64,000 nt of DNA from a virus: positions 13,484 through 77,483 of IMG/VR virus record IMGVR_UViG_3300045988_132927, one strand, 5' to 3'. Within the stretch, counting starts at the first letter, position 1. Each line of letters begins with the position of its first letter. Of the stretch, positions 12,508 to 33,829 are shown one piece after another. Both the position numbers and the translations under genes were made by a program. The notes below the pieces were generated by a model. It had not been told where the DNA came from, searched no databases, and saw only the letters and a program-made list of their open reading frames with translations.

Positions 12508-15500
12508 TGGCTTCACAGTATAGTATTTTAAGGCAATATGCCCCGTATGTTAGTCCTTACAACATAGATCTTGTTAAGGACGTCATGATGTACAAACAGC
12601 AGAAGGTTGATGCTGCTCGTGAAAAGATCTATACCCAGGTAGATTATCTTATGGGTCAAGAGATAGATAAGCCTGAAGCCCGTGCTTATATGGAAGATAA
12701 GATGTCAGGTGTGATTGCTAACATCAATCAAAAATTCAAAGGCGTGGATCTTTCTTCTGATGGTGTTACGAGAGCCATACAAGGAGAGATCAGTTCAGTG
12801 TTGGATGATACGGTCATTAACGCGATTGCCGGCACAAAAGAAGGCAAGAGGGTTATGAAGGAAATAGAATCTATAAAACAGAATCATCCTGAACTTTATT
12901 CTCCTATTAATGAATGGCATGCTTTGGACCCTTATTACAAATGGAGGTCAGATGGTAAAGCAGGATCAAGGTTGGGAGGTCTTCATTATTCTCCTTATGT
13001 CGATTATACTAAGGAGATAAATAAGCTGGTCAGTGATTTTAGGAAAAACAACGAAGGCAAGAAGATTCAGACAACAGAATATGATGTTAAAGGTAATCCT
13101 ACTGGTGGAATCATAGAAGTCAACGTAGATGAGCTTACTGATTCCCAGATAAGGAATTTTGTGTCTGCTAACTTATCTGAAAACATGAGGAATCAGATGA
13201 GAATAGAAGCATCATACATGGCAGCTACCAATCCGGTGTTCAGTAATCCAGATTTGGTTAGTCAATACATTGGGTCTTATGTCGAAAGATACGATAGGCA
13301 CATAGGAGCATTGGAAGCAAAAAAGAAATCAGTAGGGGATAATAAGGATATTATTGATCGTATTGACAGTCAGATACAGGAAGCTAAAAATCAGAAAGCA
13401 GAAGCCAAGAGGGAGGCAGATATGATAATAGCTTCATCAGATCCGGTAGCGGCTGCTAATTTTGTTGTTACCAATAATCTTTTCGATAAGATGACTGATG
13501 CATGGAGATACGACAATACAAGTTTTGAAAGGAAGAAAGATGATCTTTATTTTGCAAGGTTGGCAGAGGATAGGGCTCAGCAAAAGTTTTTGACTGATAA
13601 TGCTAAGTCTATGGTTGAAATATCGTTGGCAAAAGAGCAACTTGCACAGGCTAAGATTGAAACCGAATACATGCGTACTTACGGTTCCAAGATGGGCACT
13701 GAAAGCTCATCCGGAGGCACAAGAGGAGCAGGCGGTGTAGGAGTGCCGATGGCTCCTATGGACGGGCCTACGGCTATCAATTCTGGAACGGGTAAGATAG
13801 GATCTGTTAATTTGGCTAATATCCCTTATGAACAACTCACATCTTCTTCCACAGAGCGTAGAGCAAATTTATTGAAATTATATAATTCATTATCTCCTAC
13901 AGACAGAAGTAATATCGTTGCAGCATCATACGAAGAAGAAAAAACTGACCCAGGATTGTATGCTAATATGACTCCTGAAGAACGGATATATTCTTATTTA
14001 AAAAATAATGGAGGTCAGAAAAACGGATATTTTGGACAAGGAAATAACAGATTGTCTGAAGCTTATGATGCTTTACTTCTTTCTGATTCTAAGGCAAATG
14101 GAGCTACAAAGGCTATAAATAACATAACTGATTATCAAATAGATAATATAGTTACTAAAAAAAATAAGGATATTATCAGTAAAGTTCGTAATGCTAAGTT
14201 TATGAAAGGAAATTCTTTTATAAATCTTACCGATACAGATGATAAGGCTGGAGCCTTCCTGCTCGCCACAGCCATAACAACTGGTGTATCTGATGCCGTA
14301 GGGTTCAGAGAATACATGATGGATCCTTCAAGAGGAATAGATATTCTTAGTGCTATATCTCCGTCATTAGGAGCTAAGGTGAGTGCAGGAAAGTTGGGGA
14401 AAAACATATCTGATGCTATTACAAGCGAGAATAATGGTTCTTCTACTGGTACATTGGCTCTTATTAATGGAATGAAGAAACTCAATGGCGATCCTGATTT
14501 TAATATATCAGATTATATGACCATAGATAAGGATGGTGATATAGATTTAAAAGATTATCAGGAAGGTGAACCATTAACTATTACCCAGCTAAGATATGCT
14601 GAGAAAAACAGTAGGGTGTCTGATATGATAGCAGGTCAGATGCAGGATGAGATAAAAATGTCTGTATCTCCTGATCAGATTTCTGATAAGTTATCTCAGT
14701 ATCATTACCTTGATTCTTACAAAAGATACAATTGGAATGCCGATTCACCGGAAAAGTCTTTGCAGAAGGCTCAGTTTAGAAGATTGTCTGGTTACATGGC
14801 AGGAAAGGTAAATAATCTGGATCCTACTGCTATTAATGCCATTAATATGGATGCCGAGATAGATAATGGCACCGTTAGAAGATTCTTGACTGCTCAAGTA
14901 GGTTCCGGTAAAAATTCTTATGTTACAGAAAGGGTTGAGATTACGAATGACGAGCTTCTTAAGGCGGGTATAGATCCTTCGGTCGAGGAGCGCAATTATC
15001 CGGTAGATGGCTACAAATCAAGTTTTGGAACCTGTGATTTTGTAGATACCGGAAAGAAGGAAGGTTATTCTTATGATAAGTATCTTATACGTAATGGCCT
15101 TCCTCGTTTGGCTTCTAAGGCTGATGTTAAGAATGATCTTTATGATATAGTAAAGGTTCATGGTTCTTACCTTAAGCCAGAAGAAATGAATGTTGTTAAA
15201 GCCCTTGTTGATAATTTTATTGACATGTCTGATAATATATCAGTTCAGTTGGAGGGAATGGACGATAGGGGTTCAAGAGAGGTAGCGGTCAATTTCTATG
15301 ACAAAAGGACTAAAAATTCTAAAAATCCTGCATTGTTGTTCTCGGATTTTGTTCCTTTGGATCCAGGTAATGATGAGTATGCGGATTACTGGAATAGCAT
15401 TCACCAGAAGTGTCCTCAGTACTTCTTTGTAAAATACGTGAAGGAGGCTGTTCAAGAACGTCTTGATCAGATGAGGGATCCGTATATGAGAGGAATAAAT

Positions 15501-26428: not shown

Positions 26429-27313
26429 ATGGATAAAGTTTCTGTTTTTGAAAGTTCGGATTTTGGAGAGCTTAGAATTATTGTAGATCCAAAAGGAGAT
26501 GTTTGGTTTGTGGCGTCAGATGTGGCTAAATCTCTTGGATATATAAATGCTAAAGATGCGGTAAAAAGACATGTAGATGATGATGATTCTATGCTTTTGC
26601 AAGTATCTGATAATCAATGGGGCGTAAAACGATCTATATTGAAAACCAGATATATAGATAGTATAAGAATAATTAATGAATCTGGTTTATATTCTCTTAT
26701 ATTATCTTCAAAATTAGAGTCTGCTAAGAGATTTAAGAAATGGGTAACATCTGAGGTTCTTCCTTCTATTCGTAAAACAGGAGAATATAAAACAAGTTCC
26801 GGTGGAAAGGGAATTTTGGTCCCTGACTTTTCTAATCCGGCAGATGCAGCAAGAGCCTGGGCTGATCAATATGAAGCTGCTCAAAAAGCTATAGCCGAAA
26901 AGTCGCAGGCAGAGGCAGAGAAGCAACAAGCTTTGAAAACAATAGAAGAACACAAGCCCGATGTAGAATTTGCCGAGTCTTTTAGGAAAGTAGACCATAA
27001 TAATATGTGGCTGATTCGTGATATTGCAAAGAAGTTAGAGCAAAATGGTGTTATTATTGCTGAAAAGAATCTTCGCTCATTCCTTGAAGAAGCTAAATTC
27101 ATGTTTAGGAACGGTCTTGGCAAATGGGAGCTATATAGCAATGTTGTAGTTAAAGGGTATGGAGTGTATAGGTCTTATTTCATAGATAAGTATTCTGGTG
27201 ATAGAATCAATCAACAAACCATATACATGACAGGCTCCGGATATGAAGTGACCTTAAATGGTATAAAAGGAAAACTCAAAAATGTGTTTCTAAAATATGG
27301 CAAGTTTGCTTAA
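26429..27313 (+). CDS. Bro-N domain antirepressor-like protein (BRO family, N-terminal Bro-N plus C-terminal domain)
   Basis: VWFVASDVAKSLGY...INESGLYSLIL...AKRFKKWVTSEVLPSIRKTGEY matches Bro-N consensus. Confidence 0.75.
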   Translation: MDKVSVFESSDFGELRIIVDPKGDVWFVASDVAKSLGYINAKDAVKRHVDDDDSMLLQVSDNQWGVKRSILKTRYIDSIRIINESGLYSLILSSKLESAKRFKKWVTSEVLPSIRKTGEYKTSSGGKGILVPDFSNPADAARAWADQYEAAQKAIAEKSQAEAEKQQALKTIEEHKPDVEFAESFRKVDHNNMWLIRDIAKKLEQNGVIIAEKNLRSFLEEAKFMFRNGLGKWELYSNVVVKGYGVYRSYFIDKYSGDRINQQTIYMTGSGYEVTLNGIKGKLKNVFLKYGKFA

Positions 27314-29957: not shown

Positions 29958-30251
29958 ATGGTTAACGTCGATGGATCCAAGAGGATCTGGAAGCAGCCGG
30001 AAATAAAAGATATTTTTGAAAAGTGCGGAGCGAAGAAGCCGGATAAAGCGACATGGGGCGATGTCCAATATGTCTTTGCAATGTACTATTCGGATGGTTT
30101 TCCGAAGGTCTTCAAATGTGAGAACGAGTTGGTGAAAGCTACGTTAATGTATTTGGATGATCCGGATGCTCCCGAAGGAGTAGCCTTTATAAGATGGCTT
30201 GCCGTGCAAGATTACCTCGGCGAAAAAATAAACTGGAAGGATCTGACCTGA
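29958..30251 (+). CDS. hypothetical protein
   Basis: 97-aa ORF. Confidence 0.4.
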   Translation: MVNVDGSKRIWKQPEIKDIFEKCGAKKPDKATWGDVQYVFAMYYSDGFPKVFKCENELVKATLMYLDDPDAPEGVAFIRWLAVQDYLGEKINWKDLT

Positions 30252-31214: not shown

Positions 31215-31967
31215 ATGGGGTTAGACGATTTTAAAGATGTAATTAGAGTGATGACAAAAGAAGAGTTCGAATCAGCAATCAACGAAGATATTAAATTCGT
31301 TGAAGGAATTAAGCATTTTTTTAAACATGATGATGCTACGAGGGTAATGGAACACGTAAAGTCTGTGTTAGAAACATCAGTGGACTACTACTACCCGAAT
31401 CATCCTGAACCTGAAGCAGAACCTGGAGACATGGGAGAAGTTTCTGATGGATACCATACTTTCAATGAATTGTATCGGTATCGCATGTTGTATAACGCCG
31501 CCTTCTTTAATCTATTAGCCAGAAACGGACAGGTTGAAGTTTGCAAATCAAGAAAGCACAGCGATGGAGAAAAATGCTTCGGTTCTGATGACTGGTTTAT
31601 TGTGATGGCGATCCTACCTACCGGTCAGGTATCTAATCACTATGAAAGCAAATACTGGGATTTGTTTGATGTTCCTGAAAGAGAAACCGCTTTCGAATAC
31701 GATGGCCATACACCAAATGAAGCTGCCGACAGACTTGAAAAATATCTCAAACTGCCTCGTCATGGCATGACATTCGAAAAGGCTTTAGAACAGCTTAAAT
31801 TAGGTCGTAAGATAAAAAGAATCGATTGGGGTAAAAAGTATATCTGTATATTTATTGTAGAATCTGACGTAAATATATTGATGGTAGATACAGGTCAAAA
31901 AGTAGCATCAAATTGGAATCCAACCGAACATGATATTATGTCTAATGACTGGGAGATTGCGGGATGA
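31215..31967 (+). CDS. two-domain protein: unknown N-terminal domain fused to C-terminal DUF2829 (Tad2-like cyclic-nucleotide sponge fold)
   Basis: C-terminal MTFEKALEQLKLGRKIKRIDWGKKYI...DIMSNDWEI matches remembered DUF2829/Tad2 pattern M.F.EAL.ALK.GKKV.R.GW...DLLAEDWEVV. Confidence 0.5.
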   Translation: MGLDDFKDVIRVMTKEEFESAINEDIKFVEGIKHFFKHDDATRVMEHVKSVLETSVDYYYPNHPEPEAEPGDMGEVSDGYHTFNELYRYRMLYNAAFFNLLARNGQVEVCKSRKHSDGEKCFGSDDWFIVMAILPTGQVSNHYESKYWDLFDVPERETAFEYDGHTPNEAADRLEKYLKLPRHGMTFEKALEQLKLGRKIKRIDWGKKYICIFIVESDVNILMVDTGQKVASNWNPTEHDIMSNDWEIAG

Positions 31968-32239
31968 GTTTGTTTGTATGTTCAAAGTGTGGCTGTATAG
32001 ATAATACAGCCACATCATGTTACTGGGCTCTTATAAGACCTTGTAAGAATCGTATTTACGATAAGTCGCTAAAGGGATATGAAGGCAAGCCTCTTTGTTC
32101 TGAATGTGCCGCTATTGAATATAGTAAGGGAGACGAAGTGGTGGTAGTTCCTGGAACGTGGCATGGTAAGTTCAAGAAAGAATGGCCTACTGAAGAAGAG
32201 AAGAAGCATATTGGTAAAAACGGTATTTTAAATATGTAA
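31964..32239 (+). CDS. small Cys-rich (zinc-ribbon-like) protein
   Basis: CSKCGC ... CSEC motifs. Confidence 0.4.
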   Translation: MSLFVCSKCGCIDNTATSCYWALIRPCKNRIYDKSLKGYEGKPLCSECAAIEYSKGDEVVVVPGTWHGKFKKEWPTEEEKKHIGKNGILNM

Positions 32240-32242
32240 ATT

Positions 32243-32548
32243 ATGTGTGATAAGGAAATTGTTGTATGTGCAGCTATATGGGTTCAAGATCACAAGAACA
32301 AGCCTCACGGTCCAGTAAATATACCATTCGGAACCGTATTTTGTGGATTGAGACACTGTTCCATAATATCGCAACTTGCGGCATACGGAATAGCTCATAA
32401 AAACCGCAGTGTTCAAGGATTTTTGACGAGCAAGAACCGGTTTTTAACAAGAGAGGAAGCGTCTGAACTTGTTAGAAACAATAATCAAGAGATGGTGGTA
32501 GATAGGAATGCCATTAGAGAACAGTTGTATTCAGAAGATTTATATTAG
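32243..32548 (+). CDS. hypothetical protein
   Basis: 101-aa ORF. Confidence 0.4.
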   Translation: MCDKEIVVCAAIWVQDHKNKPHGPVNIPFGTVFCGLRHCSIISQLAAYGIAHKNRSVQGFLTSKNRFLTREEASELVRNNNQEMVVDRNAIREQLYSEDLY

Positions 32549-32565
32549 TGTATTAAAATGTTTAA

Positions 32566-33756
32566 ATGAAACTTGTTGAAAGACATATAGTTAAAGACAA
32601 CTGGTTTGAGGATATATGCCTCAAATCTGGTTTGTTGTACAATTATGTTCTTTACAACATTCGTCAAGGAGTCTTTTCTGGTAACTACTTAAAGGAGTTT
32701 GATTTATCAAACAAACTTTGCAAAGAAAACCAATTTGATTTCAGGAATTTACCTAATCATGTTTCACAGCAGGTGATTAAACAGGTATTTAAAAACATAA
32801 AATCCTGGATGAGATTAAAGAAAGATTTTGAAAAGAATCCTTCGAAATACGGTAATCATCGTCCTCATCTTCCTTCGTATAAGAAGGGCAAGAAACAAAA
32901 CATGGTTGTTTTTACTAACTGTGATTGTAGGATAAAGGATGATGGTTATATCCATTTTGTCAAAAACACAATTAAACCGATCAAAACAAATGTAAAGAAA
33001 GATGAATTAAAACAAGTTAGAATCATACCTCAAGCCACCTGTTATGTAGTAGAGGTAGTTTATGAAAGAAAGGAAATTGATCTTGGTTTAGATAAAGACA
33101 ATTTTCTTTCGATTGATTTAGGATTGAATAATTTATGTTCATGTATTAGCAATGTAGGATTAATTCCTTTCATTGTAAACGGACGGATTATGAAATCATT
33201 TAATCAATGGTACAATAAGAAGAAAGCTAAGTTGATGTCTTTTGTTGGTGATAGAGGATCTTCAAATAGGATAAGAAGAATCACTTTGTTTAGAAATTGT
33301 TGGATAGAAGACAAGTTGCATAAGATAAGCAGATATATTGTCAACTTCTGTAGATCAAACAACATAGGAACAATCATCATCGGATTAAATAAGGAATGGA
33401 AACAGGAAATCAATATTGGTAGGCGAAATAACCAACATTTTGTTTCTATTCCTCATTCAAAGTTAATAGATAAGATTGTTTACAAAGCAAAGTTATTAGG
33501 AATCAATGTTGTTATTCATGAAGAATCCTATACATCAAAGATAGATCATCTTGCTTTTGAACCTCTAAAGAAACAGGAATCCTACTTAGGAAAAAGAAAG
33601 AAACGTGGATTGTTTCAAAGTTCAATTGGAAAACTGATCAATGCAGATATTAATGGATCAATTGGAATAGCAAGAAAAGTAATTGGTGATTCTTTTATTG
33701 GAAAGATAATCGATAGTGGATTTGTGTTTAATCCAATTAGAGTAAATACTTTGTGA
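32566..33756 (+). CDS. tnpB: TnpB-like (IS200/IS605 OrfB family) RuvC nuclease homolog, compact (396 aa), lacking the canonical CxxC..CxxC zinc finger
   Basis: RuvC-I SIDLGLNN; region YKAKLLGINVVIHEESYTSKID aligns with TnpB YKxxxxGxxVVxVxxxxTSKxC; RuvC-III NADINGSIGIARK (cf. DADVNAAINI); no Cys between RuvC-II and RuvC-III. Confidence 0.7.
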   Translation: MKLVERHIVKDNWFEDICLKSGLLYNYVLYNIRQGVFSGNYLKEFDLSNKLCKENQFDFRNLPNHVSQQVIKQVFKNIKSWMRLKKDFEKNPSKYGNHRPHLPSYKKGKKQNMVVFTNCDCRIKDDGYIHFVKNTIKPIKTNVKKDELKQVRIIPQATCYVVEVVYERKEIDLGLDKDNFLSIDLGLNNLCSCISNVGLIPFIVNGRIMKSFNQWYNKKKAKLMSFVGDRGSSNRIRRITLFRNCWIEDKLHKISRYIVNFCRSNNIGTIIIGLNKEWKQEINIGRRNNQHFVSIPHSKLIDKIVYKAKLLGINVVIHEESYTSKIDHLAFEPLKKQESYLGKRKKRGLFQSSIGKLINADINGSIGIARKVIGDSFIGKIIDSGFVFNPIRVNTL

Positions 33757-33829
33757 TACAAGGTTGAATCTAATAAATAAAATGAGTAATTTTAATAACA
33801 TTTGTATTAACTAAAAAAAATAAAACAAC

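Follow-up and report, generated by a model that had tools for sequence, protein, structure and literature searches.

A minimal Tad2-fold module joined to a conserved WDGH domain in a protein of crAss-like gut phages: domain architecture, evolution and a possible role in counter-defence

Background

The characterized members of the Tad2 (DUF2829) family are sponges whose clades differ in ligand. Tad2 of phage SPO1 (gp34.65; PDB entries 8sme, 8smf and 8smg) sequesters 3'cADPR of type I Thoeris, ModTad2 (8v3e, 9eib) sequesters His-ADPR of type II Thoeris, and HgmTad2, also called AcrIIA7, and SptTad2 (8kbi-8kbm, 8wjd), from phages of Bacteroidota, are dual sponges of gcADPR and cyclic dinucleotides, cGG being bound by HgmTad2 by means of an insert. 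The ligand contacts of SPO1 Tad2 include W25, N26, W73, S76, T78 and D79, with T78, S76, D67, H71, I63 and T65 making contacts to the adenine and in the water network (10.1101/2023.05.01.538930), and those of HgmTad2 with gcADPR comprise W21, N22, G23, W87 and D93 (10.1101/2023.11.15.567273); N26 in the former and N22 and G23 in the latter touch the diphosphate, and W21A/N22A abolishes binding by HgmTad2 (10.1101/2023.05.01.538930; 10.1101/2023.11.15.567273). The cyclic-dinucleotide (CDN) pocket of HgmTad2 and SptTad2 is built by an insertion of 35-41 residues between β2 and β5, with R31, S47, F70 and N85 as the pocket residues in HgmTad2 (10.1101/2023.11.15.567273). In solved Tad2 structures, an extended β2-β3 loop with helix α2 forms a V-shaped dimer interface, and the known sponges have all been described with positively charged pockets between protomers (10.1101/2025.07.12.664507).

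Sponge domains are also found joined to each other. Fusions described by Tal et al. include Acb4-Tad2 from Pasteurella phage Pm86, Tad2-Sequestin and Sequestin-Acb4, the first two being known to work as sponges, and it was fusion to a known sponge that provided the logic for the discovery of Sequestin, itself a sponge of 3'cADPR (10.1101/2025.07.12.664507).

Here we analyse a gene of a crAss-like gut phage located within a window of 64,000 nucleotides, i.e. the whole stretch of viral DNA under study (IMG/VR record IMGVR_UViG_3300045988_132927, positions 13,484 to 77,483). An initial annotation, made from the sequence alone, had interpreted its product as a candidate new protein against Thoeris or CBASS, in which a Tad2-like sponge domain is fused to an unrelated domain. 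The comparisons reported below give direct support to the domain identities, the fold, the mapping of pocket residues, the exchange of cassettes, the contrast in selection and the fusion partners of the relatives.

Results and discussion

Gene and domain organization

The open reading frame is real, with the position, strand and length originally assigned to it, and its product consists of three pieces according to Pfam and the AlphaFold2 (AF2) model: a helical hairpin, a WDGH domain and a short Tad2-fold module. The features are as follows (positions in the window):

31215..31967, + strand: complete coding sequence, 250 aa plus stop, with an ATG start (ORF list and sequence)
31257..31391, + strand: N-terminal two-helix hairpin, aa 15-59 (AF2 helices 15-35 and 39-59, pLDDT about 73-85)
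31434..31742, + strand: WDGH domain, aa 74-176, a core under strong constraint (Pfam PF25311)
31767..31958, + strand: minimal Tad2-like (DUF2829) module, aa 185-248 (PF11195, Foldseek, translation)
31827..31838, + strand: β1-β2 loop W205-G-K-K (translation; alignment with SPO1, Mod and Hgm Tad2)
31914..31934, + strand: W234-N-P-T-E-H-D240 (translation; HMMER alignment to 8sme)
31723..31941, no strand assigned: DNA segment exchanged as a cassette between phages whose genomes are nearly identical elsewhere (sliding identity against locus L011, which carries the P0014 allele)

The gene's surroundings are hypervariable and consist of small accessory genes, among which TnpB insertions are polymorphic, in agreement with the accessory location proposed at the outset, and the genes that flank it give no hint of function. 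The locus shows 98.4% DNA identity to phage csAssE-Sib (OR575929.1), and contigs that encode the identical 250-aa protein occur in 96 index blocks, of which 45 contain contigs of 50-200 kb. WDGH is often combined with a Tad2-like module (1193 homologues), and in GenBank the orthologue from csAssE-Sib already carries the annotation DUF2829; the literature retrieved on Tad2 in crAss phages or on Tad2-like proteins contains nothing on the WDGH-Tad2 architecture. As for the N-terminal part of about 185 residues, it was correctly regarded as a domain different from Tad2, but it is not an unknown one, being composed of the hairpin and the Pfam domain WDGH. The hairpin (aa 15-59) matches no Pfam or NCBIfam family, and the N-termini that relatives carry at its position are unrelated (4-40% identity).

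The C-terminal module has a Tad2 fold

The C-terminal 64 residues (MTFEKALEQLKLGRKIKRIDWGKKY...DIMSNDWEI) match the Tad2-like family PF11195 with E=8.6e-13 and 49.1 bits (cut-off 25 bits), over positions 1-72 of the 73 in the profile, in line with the initial annotation. Among solved structures, the best sequence match is SPO1 Tad2 (8sme), with E=2e-4 for the single sequence and E=6e-18 for the family profile. The AF2 model has a mean pLDDT of 82.9, with most of the Tad2 module at 85-93, and all of the 21 PDB matches found by Foldseek at E<0.01 are Tad2 structures. They include SPO1 (8wje, 8smf), Myroides (8v3e, 9eib) and Hgm (8kbj) proteins, with a probability of 1.0, E of about 3e-5 and target-normalized TM scores of 0.75-0.79 for the best matches and 0.53-0.79 across SPO1, Mod and Hgm Tad2; these values place the likeness to Tad2, which had been predicted, far beyond chance. 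In the model, helix 187-195 (α1) is followed by strands 200-202, 208-215, 218-225 and 230-233 (β1-β4), a short helix 238-242 and strand 246-248 (β5). The module thus comprises the N-terminal helix, the antiparallel sheet and the short C-terminal helix with the last strand that define the core Tad2 fold, without the β2-β3 insert and without α2, and we regard the C-terminus as a true domain of the Tad2/DUF2829 fold on the grounds of both sequence and predicted fold.

An alternative view is that the protein is DNA-directed or regulatory, or an AcrIIA7-like anti-CRISPR, instead of a manipulator of signals. A family labelled 'transcriptional regulator' (PHROG 643) matches the Tad2 module with E=1.5e-6, AcrIIA7 is matched weakly via DUF2829 (8kbi, E=0.033; 9kzr, E=0.18), and a few relatives of WDGH are fused to Bro-N, sigma70 region 4, Myb-like, YccV-like or FaeA-like domains. 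However, the PHROG label is an annotation and not a test, neither Pfam nor NCBIfam reveals a DNA-binding domain in the 250-aa protein, and the anti-CRISPR activity of AcrIIA7/HgmTad2 was irreproducible, the protein being a sponge (Li et al., 10.1101/2023.11.15.567273), all of which makes such a role highly improbable.

A partly conserved ligand pocket

The aromatic clamp and the acidic residue of characterized Tad2 proteins are kept, since W205, W234 and D240 align with W25, W73 and D79 of SPO1 Tad2 and with W21, W87 and D93 of HgmTad2. Together with R202, K208 and D245-W246, they are conserved in short and long modules alike, and the W/W/D/DW core does not vary among the retrieved homologues with an intact cassette. 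The segment W234-N-P-T-E-H-D240 corresponds to W73-V-P-S-Q-T-D79 in SPO1 Tad2, T65 of the latter is retained as T226, and the changes of I63 to V224 and of S76 to T237 are conservative. On the other hand, the phosphate loop reads W-G-K-K in place of the GWNGK present in all three aligned characterized proteins (SPO1, Mod and Hgm), with N26 of SPO1 replaced by G and G27 by K, and T78, D67 and H71 are substituted by H239, Q228 and S232. In a motif census of the short forms the loop varies, with WGKK, WKNE, WGGK, WNDK and WKDK all present. The surrounding region RKIKRIDWGKK is strongly basic, which matches the positively charged inter-protomer pockets of the known sponges. The gcADPR pocket is therefore conserved in part only: the proposed sequestration of gcADPR is favoured by W205, W234 and D240, and disfavoured by the loss of the W-N-G loop and by the changes at T78, D67 and H71. 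A divergent pocket need not be an inactive one, as illustrated by the ligand switch of ModTad2.

The module differs from its characterized relatives also in size. It has 66 residues against 89 in SPO1 Tad2, with which it shares the Pfam family and the core fold, and it follows about 184 residues of other sequence, whereas SPO1 Tad2 stands alone. In the AF2 model, β2 (208-215) is connected to β3 (218-225) by a turn of two residues, and the spacing between the two tryptophans amounts to 25 residues, compared to 44 in SPO1 and Mod Tad2 and 62 in HgmTad2. ModTad2 has the same fold (TM up to 0.79), but it keeps both GWNGK and an extended region after β2, neither of which is present here. The module is of the same family as HgmTad2 and SptTad2, and the host phylum is probably similar, while the TM scores reach only 0.53-0.57; it is the long-form WDGH-Tad2 relatives, and not the 250-aa protein, that possess the long insert, WNGK and W-x-P-S-x-S-D of these two proteins.

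By alignment and by the spacing of tryptophans, the module lacks the CDN-pocket insertion between β2 and β5; it should thus be unable to act as a sponge of cyclic dinucleotides like HgmTad2, and the anti-CBASS part of the original interpretation is not supported. The model also lacks both the β2-β3 loop and α2, so that a tetramer is not assured. It follows that a canonical Tad2 sponge, binding 3'cADPR or gcADPR in the manner of SPO1 Tad2 and cyclic dinucleotides in that of HgmTad2, and hence acting against both Thoeris and CBASS, is quite improbable: against Pfam and fold membership, the retained Trp clamp and Asp, and the origin of HgmTad2 from phages of Bacteroides, in which the hosts of crAss-like phages are probably to be sought as well, stand the absent insertion (tryptophan spacing of 25 versus 62) and the alteration of the W-N-G loop and of three more gcADPR contact positions. 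The initial annotation is thus supported in part, and sequestration of the anti-Thoeris type is possible.

The WDGH domain and its relatives

WDGH (PF25311) spans aa 74-176 with E=8.8e-37 and 125.8 bits (cut-off 27 bits), and is the more interesting of the two domains. With members from Bacillus, Salmonella, Listeria and Arthrobacter phages it has 21 invariant columns in common, namely S77, D78, G79, H81, T82, F83, E85, L86, Y87, R90, F98, S112, H115, D117, G118, G137, H142, E155, D163, G164 and H165, and it shares the family motifs SDGxHTFxELY, KSxxHxDG, xHY and (W/Y)DGH(T/Q). Four His, three Asp, two Glu, Ser, Thr and Arg are invariant across phages of Firmicutes, Proteobacteria, Actinobacteria and Bacteroidota, and these residues together with very strong purifying selection (see below) suggest catalysis or the binding of a conserved target.

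The domain is widespread: clustering of its proteins at 50% identity gives about 3750 clusters, with members in Listeria P100-like, Bacillus, P22-like, Lactococcus and crAss-like phages. Listeria and Arthrobacter phages have stand-alone WDGH genes of about 115 aa amid small hypothetical genes, and in P22-like phages WDGH is a moron. Members such as gp143 of Listeria phage LP-124 (115 aa), orf6 of Salmonella phage g341c and the proteins of Lactococcus phages P092 and P1046 are stand-alone or have other unannotated flanks, a Tad2-like tail being limited to a small minority of the family.

Searches for function or structure gave little. A broad WDGH profile found nothing at E<=10 among all PDB sequences, and no solved structural relative was identified; NCBIfam gave no match, PADLOC a noise match alone, and PHROGs only families of unknown function. 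No paper on the function of WDGH or PF25311 was found, the literature hits being unrelated or old, and WDGH is not mentioned in the study of Tal et al., whose tables do not contain the motif string. A relationship of WDGH to Acb5, an enzyme that cleaves cGAMP, or to Lockin, a sponge of 3'cADPR and His-ADPR, was rejected by hhalign (probability 0.3% for Acb5A and 0.5% for LockinA, with sequences from Tables S2, S4 and S5 of 10.1101/2025.07.12.664507). The presence of two 'DG(x)HT' motifs led us to consider a 2H-phosphoesterase, but this reading was dropped because H and T are adjacent and not arranged as H-x-T/S-x, the domain size does not fit and there is no fold support.

In a set of 147 diverse WDGH representatives, a Tad2-like domain occurs in three and Sequestin in one, and the other partners are mostly unannotated, with a few DNA-binding-like or GNAT domains; the flanks cluster into few families, without a significant Pfam match even at E<=1. 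Among close relatives there are WDGH-Sequestin(PF21825)-Tad2 triple fusions, in which Tad2 is of the canonical long WNGK form. PF21825, a helical domain, is present in seven homologues (P0108, P0111, P0114-P0116, P0119 and P0120), while the 250-aa protein itself has no match to it at E<=10. Through the triple fusions, WDGH is tied to Sequestin and Tad2, both of them proven sponge domains against Thoeris. Long-form relatives (P0099, P0106 and P0116) combine the long insert and WNGK with W-x-P-S-x-S-D. As in the fusions of Tal et al., the same polypeptide couples a Tad2-family module to a further domain specific to phages; unlike in those fusions, the partner is no known sponge or enzyme, is larger than typical sponges and is far more conserved than the Tad2 module itself.

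The invariant His, Asp, Glu, Ser, Thr and Arg in phages of four bacterial phyla, the extreme purifying selection and the fusion to two different sponge families would all fit a capture-and-destroy enzyme, in which the Tad2 cassette recruits a nucleotide signal and WDGH inactivates the signal or an NAD/ADPR-type metabolite. Small signal-cleaving phage enzymes are known (Acb1, Apyc1, Acb5). We regard this mechanism as improbable.

Cassette exchange, selection and loss

Comparison of the window with locus L011 reveals DNA identity of 35-65% only across 31723-31941, and of 92-100% on both sides. Exchange at the orthologous locus affects only the Tad2 module, with at least five cassette types and sharp DNA breakpoints, a pattern typical of modules engaged in an arms race. 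Against homologue P0010, a comparison free of saturation, dN/dS of the Tad2 cassette is 0.72 (neutrality p=0.45) and the substitutions hit pocket-equivalent positions (G206D, P236I and H239Y). WDGH, with dN/dS of 0.015-0.09, is under strong purifying selection, and when domain and cassette of one gene pair are compared, the contrast is significant (Fisher p=5e-4). There are natural alleles with a nonsense codon or deletion in Tad2 and an intact WDGH; two 'WDGH-only' matches were checked, and one is a genuine nonsense allele and the other a genuine 2.5-kb deletion, so contig-end artefacts are ruled out for both. The Tad2 module therefore evolves near-neutrally and is sometimes lost.

These observations raise the possibility that WDGH is solely responsible for function, perhaps one unrelated to immune signalling, and that the Tad2 cassette is a ligand-free tail for oligomerization or scaffolding, or a decaying remnant of a long-form sponge. 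The difference in dN/dS (0.015-0.086 versus 0.72), the fit of cassette substitutions to neutrality, the null alleles that keep WDGH, the variable phosphate-contact loop of the short forms, the lack of a Tad2-like domain in 144 of the 147 diverse WDGH proteins and the existence of stand-alone WDGH genes all argue for it. Yet 97 of the 120 homologues retrieved have an intact cassette ORF, with the W/W/D/DW core invariant, the exact 250-aa allele is widespread (the 96 index blocks mentioned above), and relatives have long WNGK forms and the Sequestin sponge at the same position of the protein. Moreover, cassettes are replaced by intact Tad2-fold cassettes and not by random sequence, which speaks for selection that keeps a module of the Tad2 type. 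On balance, we consider this alternative possible, if somewhat doubtful.

A possible role in counter-defence

Tentatively, we favour, as the most likely role, that of a modular counter-defence protein directed against nucleotide-based immune signalling (ADPR-type, TIR/Thoeris-like), composed of a variable hairpin, a WDGH core and an exchangeable Tad2 cassette. This reading follows from membership in the Tad2 family, conservation of the clamp, the basic loop and the ligand diversity of the clades, and from the working sponge fusions, the Sequestin-Tad2 relatives, the cassette swaps, the hypervariable locus and the occurrence of WDGH in stand-alone and moron genes. Against it count the loss of W-N-G, the changes at T78, D67 and H71, the loss of α2, the near-neutral cassette and the null alleles, as well as the rarity of Tad2-like (3/147) and Sequestin (1/147) domains among WDGH proteins and the lack of a WDGH function in the literature.

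With respect to oligomerization, ligand binding, the anti-defence phenotype and any activity of WDGH, we infer the following for such a counter-defence protein. The Tad2 cassette would self-associate via helix α1, in a manner like that of the solved Tad2 tetramers, and W205, W234 and D240 would line a basic pocket between subunits. K207 and K208 might replace the canonical Asn-Gly contacts to phosphate, and the pocket would capture a signal other than the 3'cADPR of SPO1 Tad2, while WDGH may add a second activity.

A broader scenario, which is unlikely, would make WDGH a new and widespread phage counter-defence enzyme or sponge that acts on nucleotide or ADPR signals or on NAD metabolism. WDGH of gut phages would then be the constant core of 'polyvalent' proteins, in which short Tad2, long Tad2 and Sequestin+Tad2 cassettes recombine to track host signalling, and the minimal 66-aa cassette would represent a new class of Tad2 ligand specificity.

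Conclusions

Sponges of the Tad2 family are one of the chief means available to phages for shutting down TIR- and cGAS-type immune signalling, and attention to sponge domains that travel as fusions has already yielded one new family, Sequestin. A Tad2 fold of only 66 residues, which keeps the Trp/Trp/Asp clamp and has lost the phosphate loop and the insert for dimerization or CDN binding, would show how far the fold can shrink and whether a move to a new ligand has taken place. WDGH in turn is present also in well-studied model phages and in thousands of clusters, and is linked to two proven anti-Thoeris sponges. If neither of these leads holds, the protein marks the limits of calling every DUF2829 match anti-Thoeris; should WDGH turn out to act against host defence, a sizeable part of phage 'dark matter' would gain an annotation.

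Domain architecture and fold

The reading frame described in the initial annotation was recovered from both the ORF list and the sequence with the same coordinates. It starts with ATG and encodes a protein with two domains, whose scores are both far over the Pfam gathering scores:

31215-31967, + strand, 250-aa ORF (WDGH-Tad2 gene)
aa 74-176, + strand, WDGH domain (PF25311), E=8.8e-37, 125.8 bits
aa 185-248, + strand, Tad2-like domain (PF11195, formerly DUF2829), E=8.6e-13, 49.1 bits

It belongs to both the Tad2-like and the WDGH families of Pfam. The predicted Tad2-like C-terminus was thereby confirmed, while the N-terminal domain, first described as unknown, belongs to a curated family, although one without a functional assignment. 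Of the solved structures, those that match best in sequence belong without exception to the Tad2 family, namely SPO1 Tad2 (8sme, E=2e-4), ModTad2 and HgmTad2/AcrIIA7, and a profile of the Tad2 module built from 13 relatives matches solved Tad2-family structures with E=6e-18 to 5e-14. An AlphaFold2 model of the 250-aa protein, made with 35 homologues (mean pLDDT 82.9), has a helical hairpin at aa 15-59; a linker of low confidence leads from it to the WDGH domain (pLDDT >90), after which comes the C-terminal module. The anticipated structural similarity was found with Foldseek: all 21 PDB matches at E<0.01 are Tad2 structures, with TM-scores of 0.75-0.79 to SPO1 and Myroides Tad2 and 0.53-0.57 to the long HgmTad2 and SptTad2. 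As such the Tad2 call is unremarkable and already annotated: the window is 98.4% identical across the locus to csAssE-Sib (OR575929.1), a 151-kb human-gut phage whose orthologue (WOZ57315.1) carries the label 'protein of unknown function (DUF2829)'. The architecture is unstudied, though visible in databases.

A minimal Tad2 module with an altered pocket

In SPO1 Tad2, 3'cADPR is gripped by W25 and W73 of both protomers, with polar contacts from N26 and D79, adenine contacts from T78, I63 and T65, and waters at D67, H71 and S76 (10.1101/2023.05.01.538930). HgmTad2 contacts gcADPR through W21, N22, G23, W87, L88, S90, T92 and D93, and has a second pocket for cGG/cGAMP (R31, S47, F70, N85), formed by a 35-41-residue insertion between beta2 and beta5 (10.1101/2023.11.15.567273).

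Pocket residues of SPO1 Tad2 and their equivalents in the window's protein, mapped from HMMER alignments
W25, W205, kept
N26, G206, changed
G27, K207, changed
I63, V224, conservative
T65, T226, kept
D67, Q228, changed
H71, S232, changed
W73, W234, kept
S76, T237, conservative
T78, H239, changed
D79, D240, kept

The loop that reads GWNGK in all three aligned characterised proteins (SPO1, Mod and Hgm Tad2) is DWGKK in the window's protein, and the two clamp tryptophans are 25 residues apart, as compared with 44 for SPO1 and Mod Tad2 and 62 for Hgm Tad2. Given this spacing and the two-residue turn that links beta2 to beta3 in the AlphaFold2 model, the module lacks helix alpha2, through which the V-shaped dimers of solved Tad2 structures are packed, and also the whole HgmTad2-type insertion. 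Since that insertion defines the cyclic dinucleotide (CDN) pocket, the anti-CBASS role as a CDN sponge, put forward in the initial annotation, was rejected. The surround of the gcADPR pocket is all present (beta1-beta2 loop, central strands and C-terminal helix) and the RKIKRIDWGKK stretch is strongly basic, so a nucleotide-type pocket across an alpha1-mediated interface is still plausible. Both the W-N-G loop and the alpha2/insert features were looked for and found missing, and for this reason the protein should not be classed as a functional SPO1/Hgm-type sponge; their absence lowers the standing of a canonical Tad2, not of a protein that works like a sponge. A fully canonical Tad2 dual sponge, as originally proposed, is therefore very unlikely, even with both clamp tryptophans kept.

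The Tad2 module as an exchangeable cassette

A motif census covered 97 homologues with a recognisable Tad2 module. Those with a W..W spacing of 56, the long forms, retain WNG[K/E] and W-x-P-S-x-S-D, as in characterised sponges; in short forms (spacing 21-36) the loop varies (WGKK in 33, WKNE in 24, WGGK and WNDK in 8 each, WKDK in 4, and others). Among 34 relatives, identity to the window's copy is 73-100% in WDGH versus 28%-98% in the Tad2 module. The homologue P0014, encoded in the same syntenic slot, is 96% identical in the N-terminus and 99% in WDGH, but only 38% in the Tad2 module. On both flanks the DNA of the two loci is 92-100% identical, and identity falls sharply to 35-65% only across window 31723-31941, which is thus a clean cassette replacement.

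Nei-Gojobori estimates were taken against the homologue P0010, the only unsaturated comparison:

WDGH, dN/dS 0.068, 18 synonymous and 6 non-synonymous changes
Tad2 cassette, dN/dS 0.72, 6 synonymous and 19 non-synonymous changes

The two differ significantly (Fisher p=5e-4), whereas the cassette alone, for which the counts are small, is indistinguishable from neutrality (p=0.45); its changes include the pocket-equivalent G206D, P236I and H239Y. WDGH is a constrained core, and the Tad2 module is a swappable, fast-evolving cassette. Two explanations fit this pattern: an arms-race module that is exchanged and subject to diversifying selection, or a weakly constrained one. Two natural alleles lack the Tad2 module and have WDGH intact: P0038 (L014 3001-3788), with a GAA-to-TAA nonsense change at codon 188 and unrelated sequence past window-equivalent 31882, and P0044 (L015 3001-3672), in which 2.5 kb is deleted so that window ~31760 adjoins 34316. 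That WDGH is the sole active part and the cassette a scaffold or remnant is a rather unlikely explanation.

The WDGH domain

A search with aa 66-180 against 1.84 billion representatives returned 3753 clusters at E<=1e-3 (426 at E<=1e-30), of which the best 150 still share 60-96% identity in the domain, although the proteins that contain it are 140-638 aa long. Among 147 of these 150, partner domains are Tad2-like in three, PF21825 in one, and GNAT, sigma70 region 4, Myb-like, YccV-like and FaeA-like in single cases; for the remaining flanks of these 147, Pfam returned nothing, even at E<=1. That the window's protein has a DNA-directed or Acr role, which the sigma70 and Myb-like partners and the HgmTad2/AcrIIA7 match might bring to mind, is highly improbable. 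An unannotated helical module ('...AKAYDEALERAK...ESEDERIRK...') recurs in 66 of 131 N-flanks and small beta modules of the 'PKFKVGDWI' type in 47 of 107 C-flanks; at least one gut metagenome protein (P0165) has two WDGH domains in tandem.

In cultured phages WDGH occurs in 197 records, including those of Listeria (54), Bacillus (45), Salmonella (34), Streptococcus (13), Lactococcus (13) and Klebsiella (8); among the matches listed, all annotated proteins are hypothetical, unknown or unnamed. Listeria phage LP-124 and Arthrobacter phage Qui carry a stand-alone 115-118-aa WDGH gene amid small hypothetical genes, and Bacillus phage Nate has a WDGH gene that overlaps the start of an adjoining NADAR-family gene. 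In P22-like Salmonella phage g341c (FJ000341.1) the gene is in a classic moron position, between the Rho-independent terminator of the coat gene, which it directly follows, and a gene similar to ST64T gene 4:

L003 (g341c locus) 3321-3881, orf6, 186-aa WDGH protein

The domain model is confident (pLDDT 91, pTM 0.82). A broad profile found no solved relative among PDB sequences at E<=10, a search of BFVD returned other WDGH proteins only, and a literature search found no paper on the domain or citing PF25311. In distant members 21 positions are invariant: S77, D78, G79, H81, T82, F83, E85, L86, Y87, R90, F98, S112, H115, D117, G118, G137, H142, E155, D163, G164 and H165. So many invariant His, Asp, Glu, Ser and Arg residues, with dN/dS at 0.015-0.09, suggest that the domain may be catalytic or may bind a conserved target. 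Were it catalysis, the protein might be a coupled capture-and-destroy enzyme, a quite unlikely arrangement in our estimation.

Genomic context

Contigs that code for exactly this 250-aa protein fall in 96 index blocks, and 45 of the blocks contain contigs of 50-200 kb. The neighbourhood is kept: ORFs of 75 and 71 aa upstream, the gene, the 91-aa ORF, the 101-aa ORF and, farther downstream, several small ORFs followed by a 2140-aa protein. The small neighbours scanned with Pfam gave no informative match.

26429-27313, + strand, Bro-N/ANT antirepressor-like protein, upstream accessory gene
29958-30251, + strand, DUF7841 protein, upstream accessory gene (E=3.8e-9)
31964-32239, + strand, 91-aa ORF, with a 4-nt overlap (ATGA) at the stop of the WDGH-Tad2 gene
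32243-32548, + strand, 101-aa ORF two genes downstream, with a precomputed match to PF26092 (T4_Y16D), a family of uncharacterised ORFs of phage T4, and none to that family at E<=0.01 in the Pfam scan
32566-33756, + strand, TnpB ORF, 396 aa, IS605 OrfB-like (PF01385, E=2.9e-15, and Cas12f1-like TNB)

The ATGA overlap makes translational coupling of the 91-aa ORF to the WDGH-Tad2 gene probable, and this ORF is kept downstream in most related loci examined. It has no Pfam match, and is Cys-rich, with CSKCGC...C...C and CSEC motifs of zinc-ribbon look. In the homologues P0036 and P0062 a Bro-N domain is fused straight onto the N-terminus of the WDGH-Tad2 protein.

TnpB genes (IS605 OrfB) take differing positions around the gene among contigs, and that of the window is a ~1.25-kb insertion (~32548-33796) relative to 99%-identical contigs and csAssE-Sib; the surroundings are therefore a plastic accessory region. 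The insertion junctions have in common a short, similar TTT(G/A)TATTA motif, and no TnpA was seen near TnpB. Related phages carry other TnpBs (37-44% identical) elsewhere in the accessory block, upstream in L007 and L009 and downstream in L010.

Association with counter-defence

In seven homologues (P0108, P0111, P0114-P0116, P0119, P0120) PF21825 lies between WDGH and a canonical long Tad2. Members of this family, named 'crAss001_48' and more recently Sequestin in Pfam, act as 3'cADPR sponges and block Thoeris of type I; fusions of sponge domains are frequent (Tad2-Acb4, Tad2-Sequestin, Sequestin-Acb4), and fusion to a known sponge has been a productive route to new anti-defence families (Tal et al., 10.1101/2025.07.12.664507). 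WDGH is not mentioned in that work, and the DGYHTF motif string was not found in its candidate and family tables, of which Table S1 was covered in part. Assignment of WDGH to the Acb5 or Lockin family was rejected (hhalign probability <1%). The T4 Sequestin sponge is named Y16O in the same work, and the 'Y16' naming suggests that it and T4_Y16D may come from one group of T4 ORFs.

WDGH accompanies two independent, proven anti-Thoeris sponge domains, in a minority of WDGH proteins, and this company is the best available argument, by association, that the whole protein acts in counter-defence. We tentatively favour, at somewhat less than even chance, a modular counter-defence protein. Its exchangeable minimal Tad2-fold cassette would mediate oligomerisation and form a basic, Trp-clamped pocket for some ADPR-type signal, rather than a cyclic dinucleotide, and WDGH would give a second activity. 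The minimal cassette, its recombinational exchange and the ultra-conserved orphan domain WDGH, its partner, are concrete leads open to direct testing.
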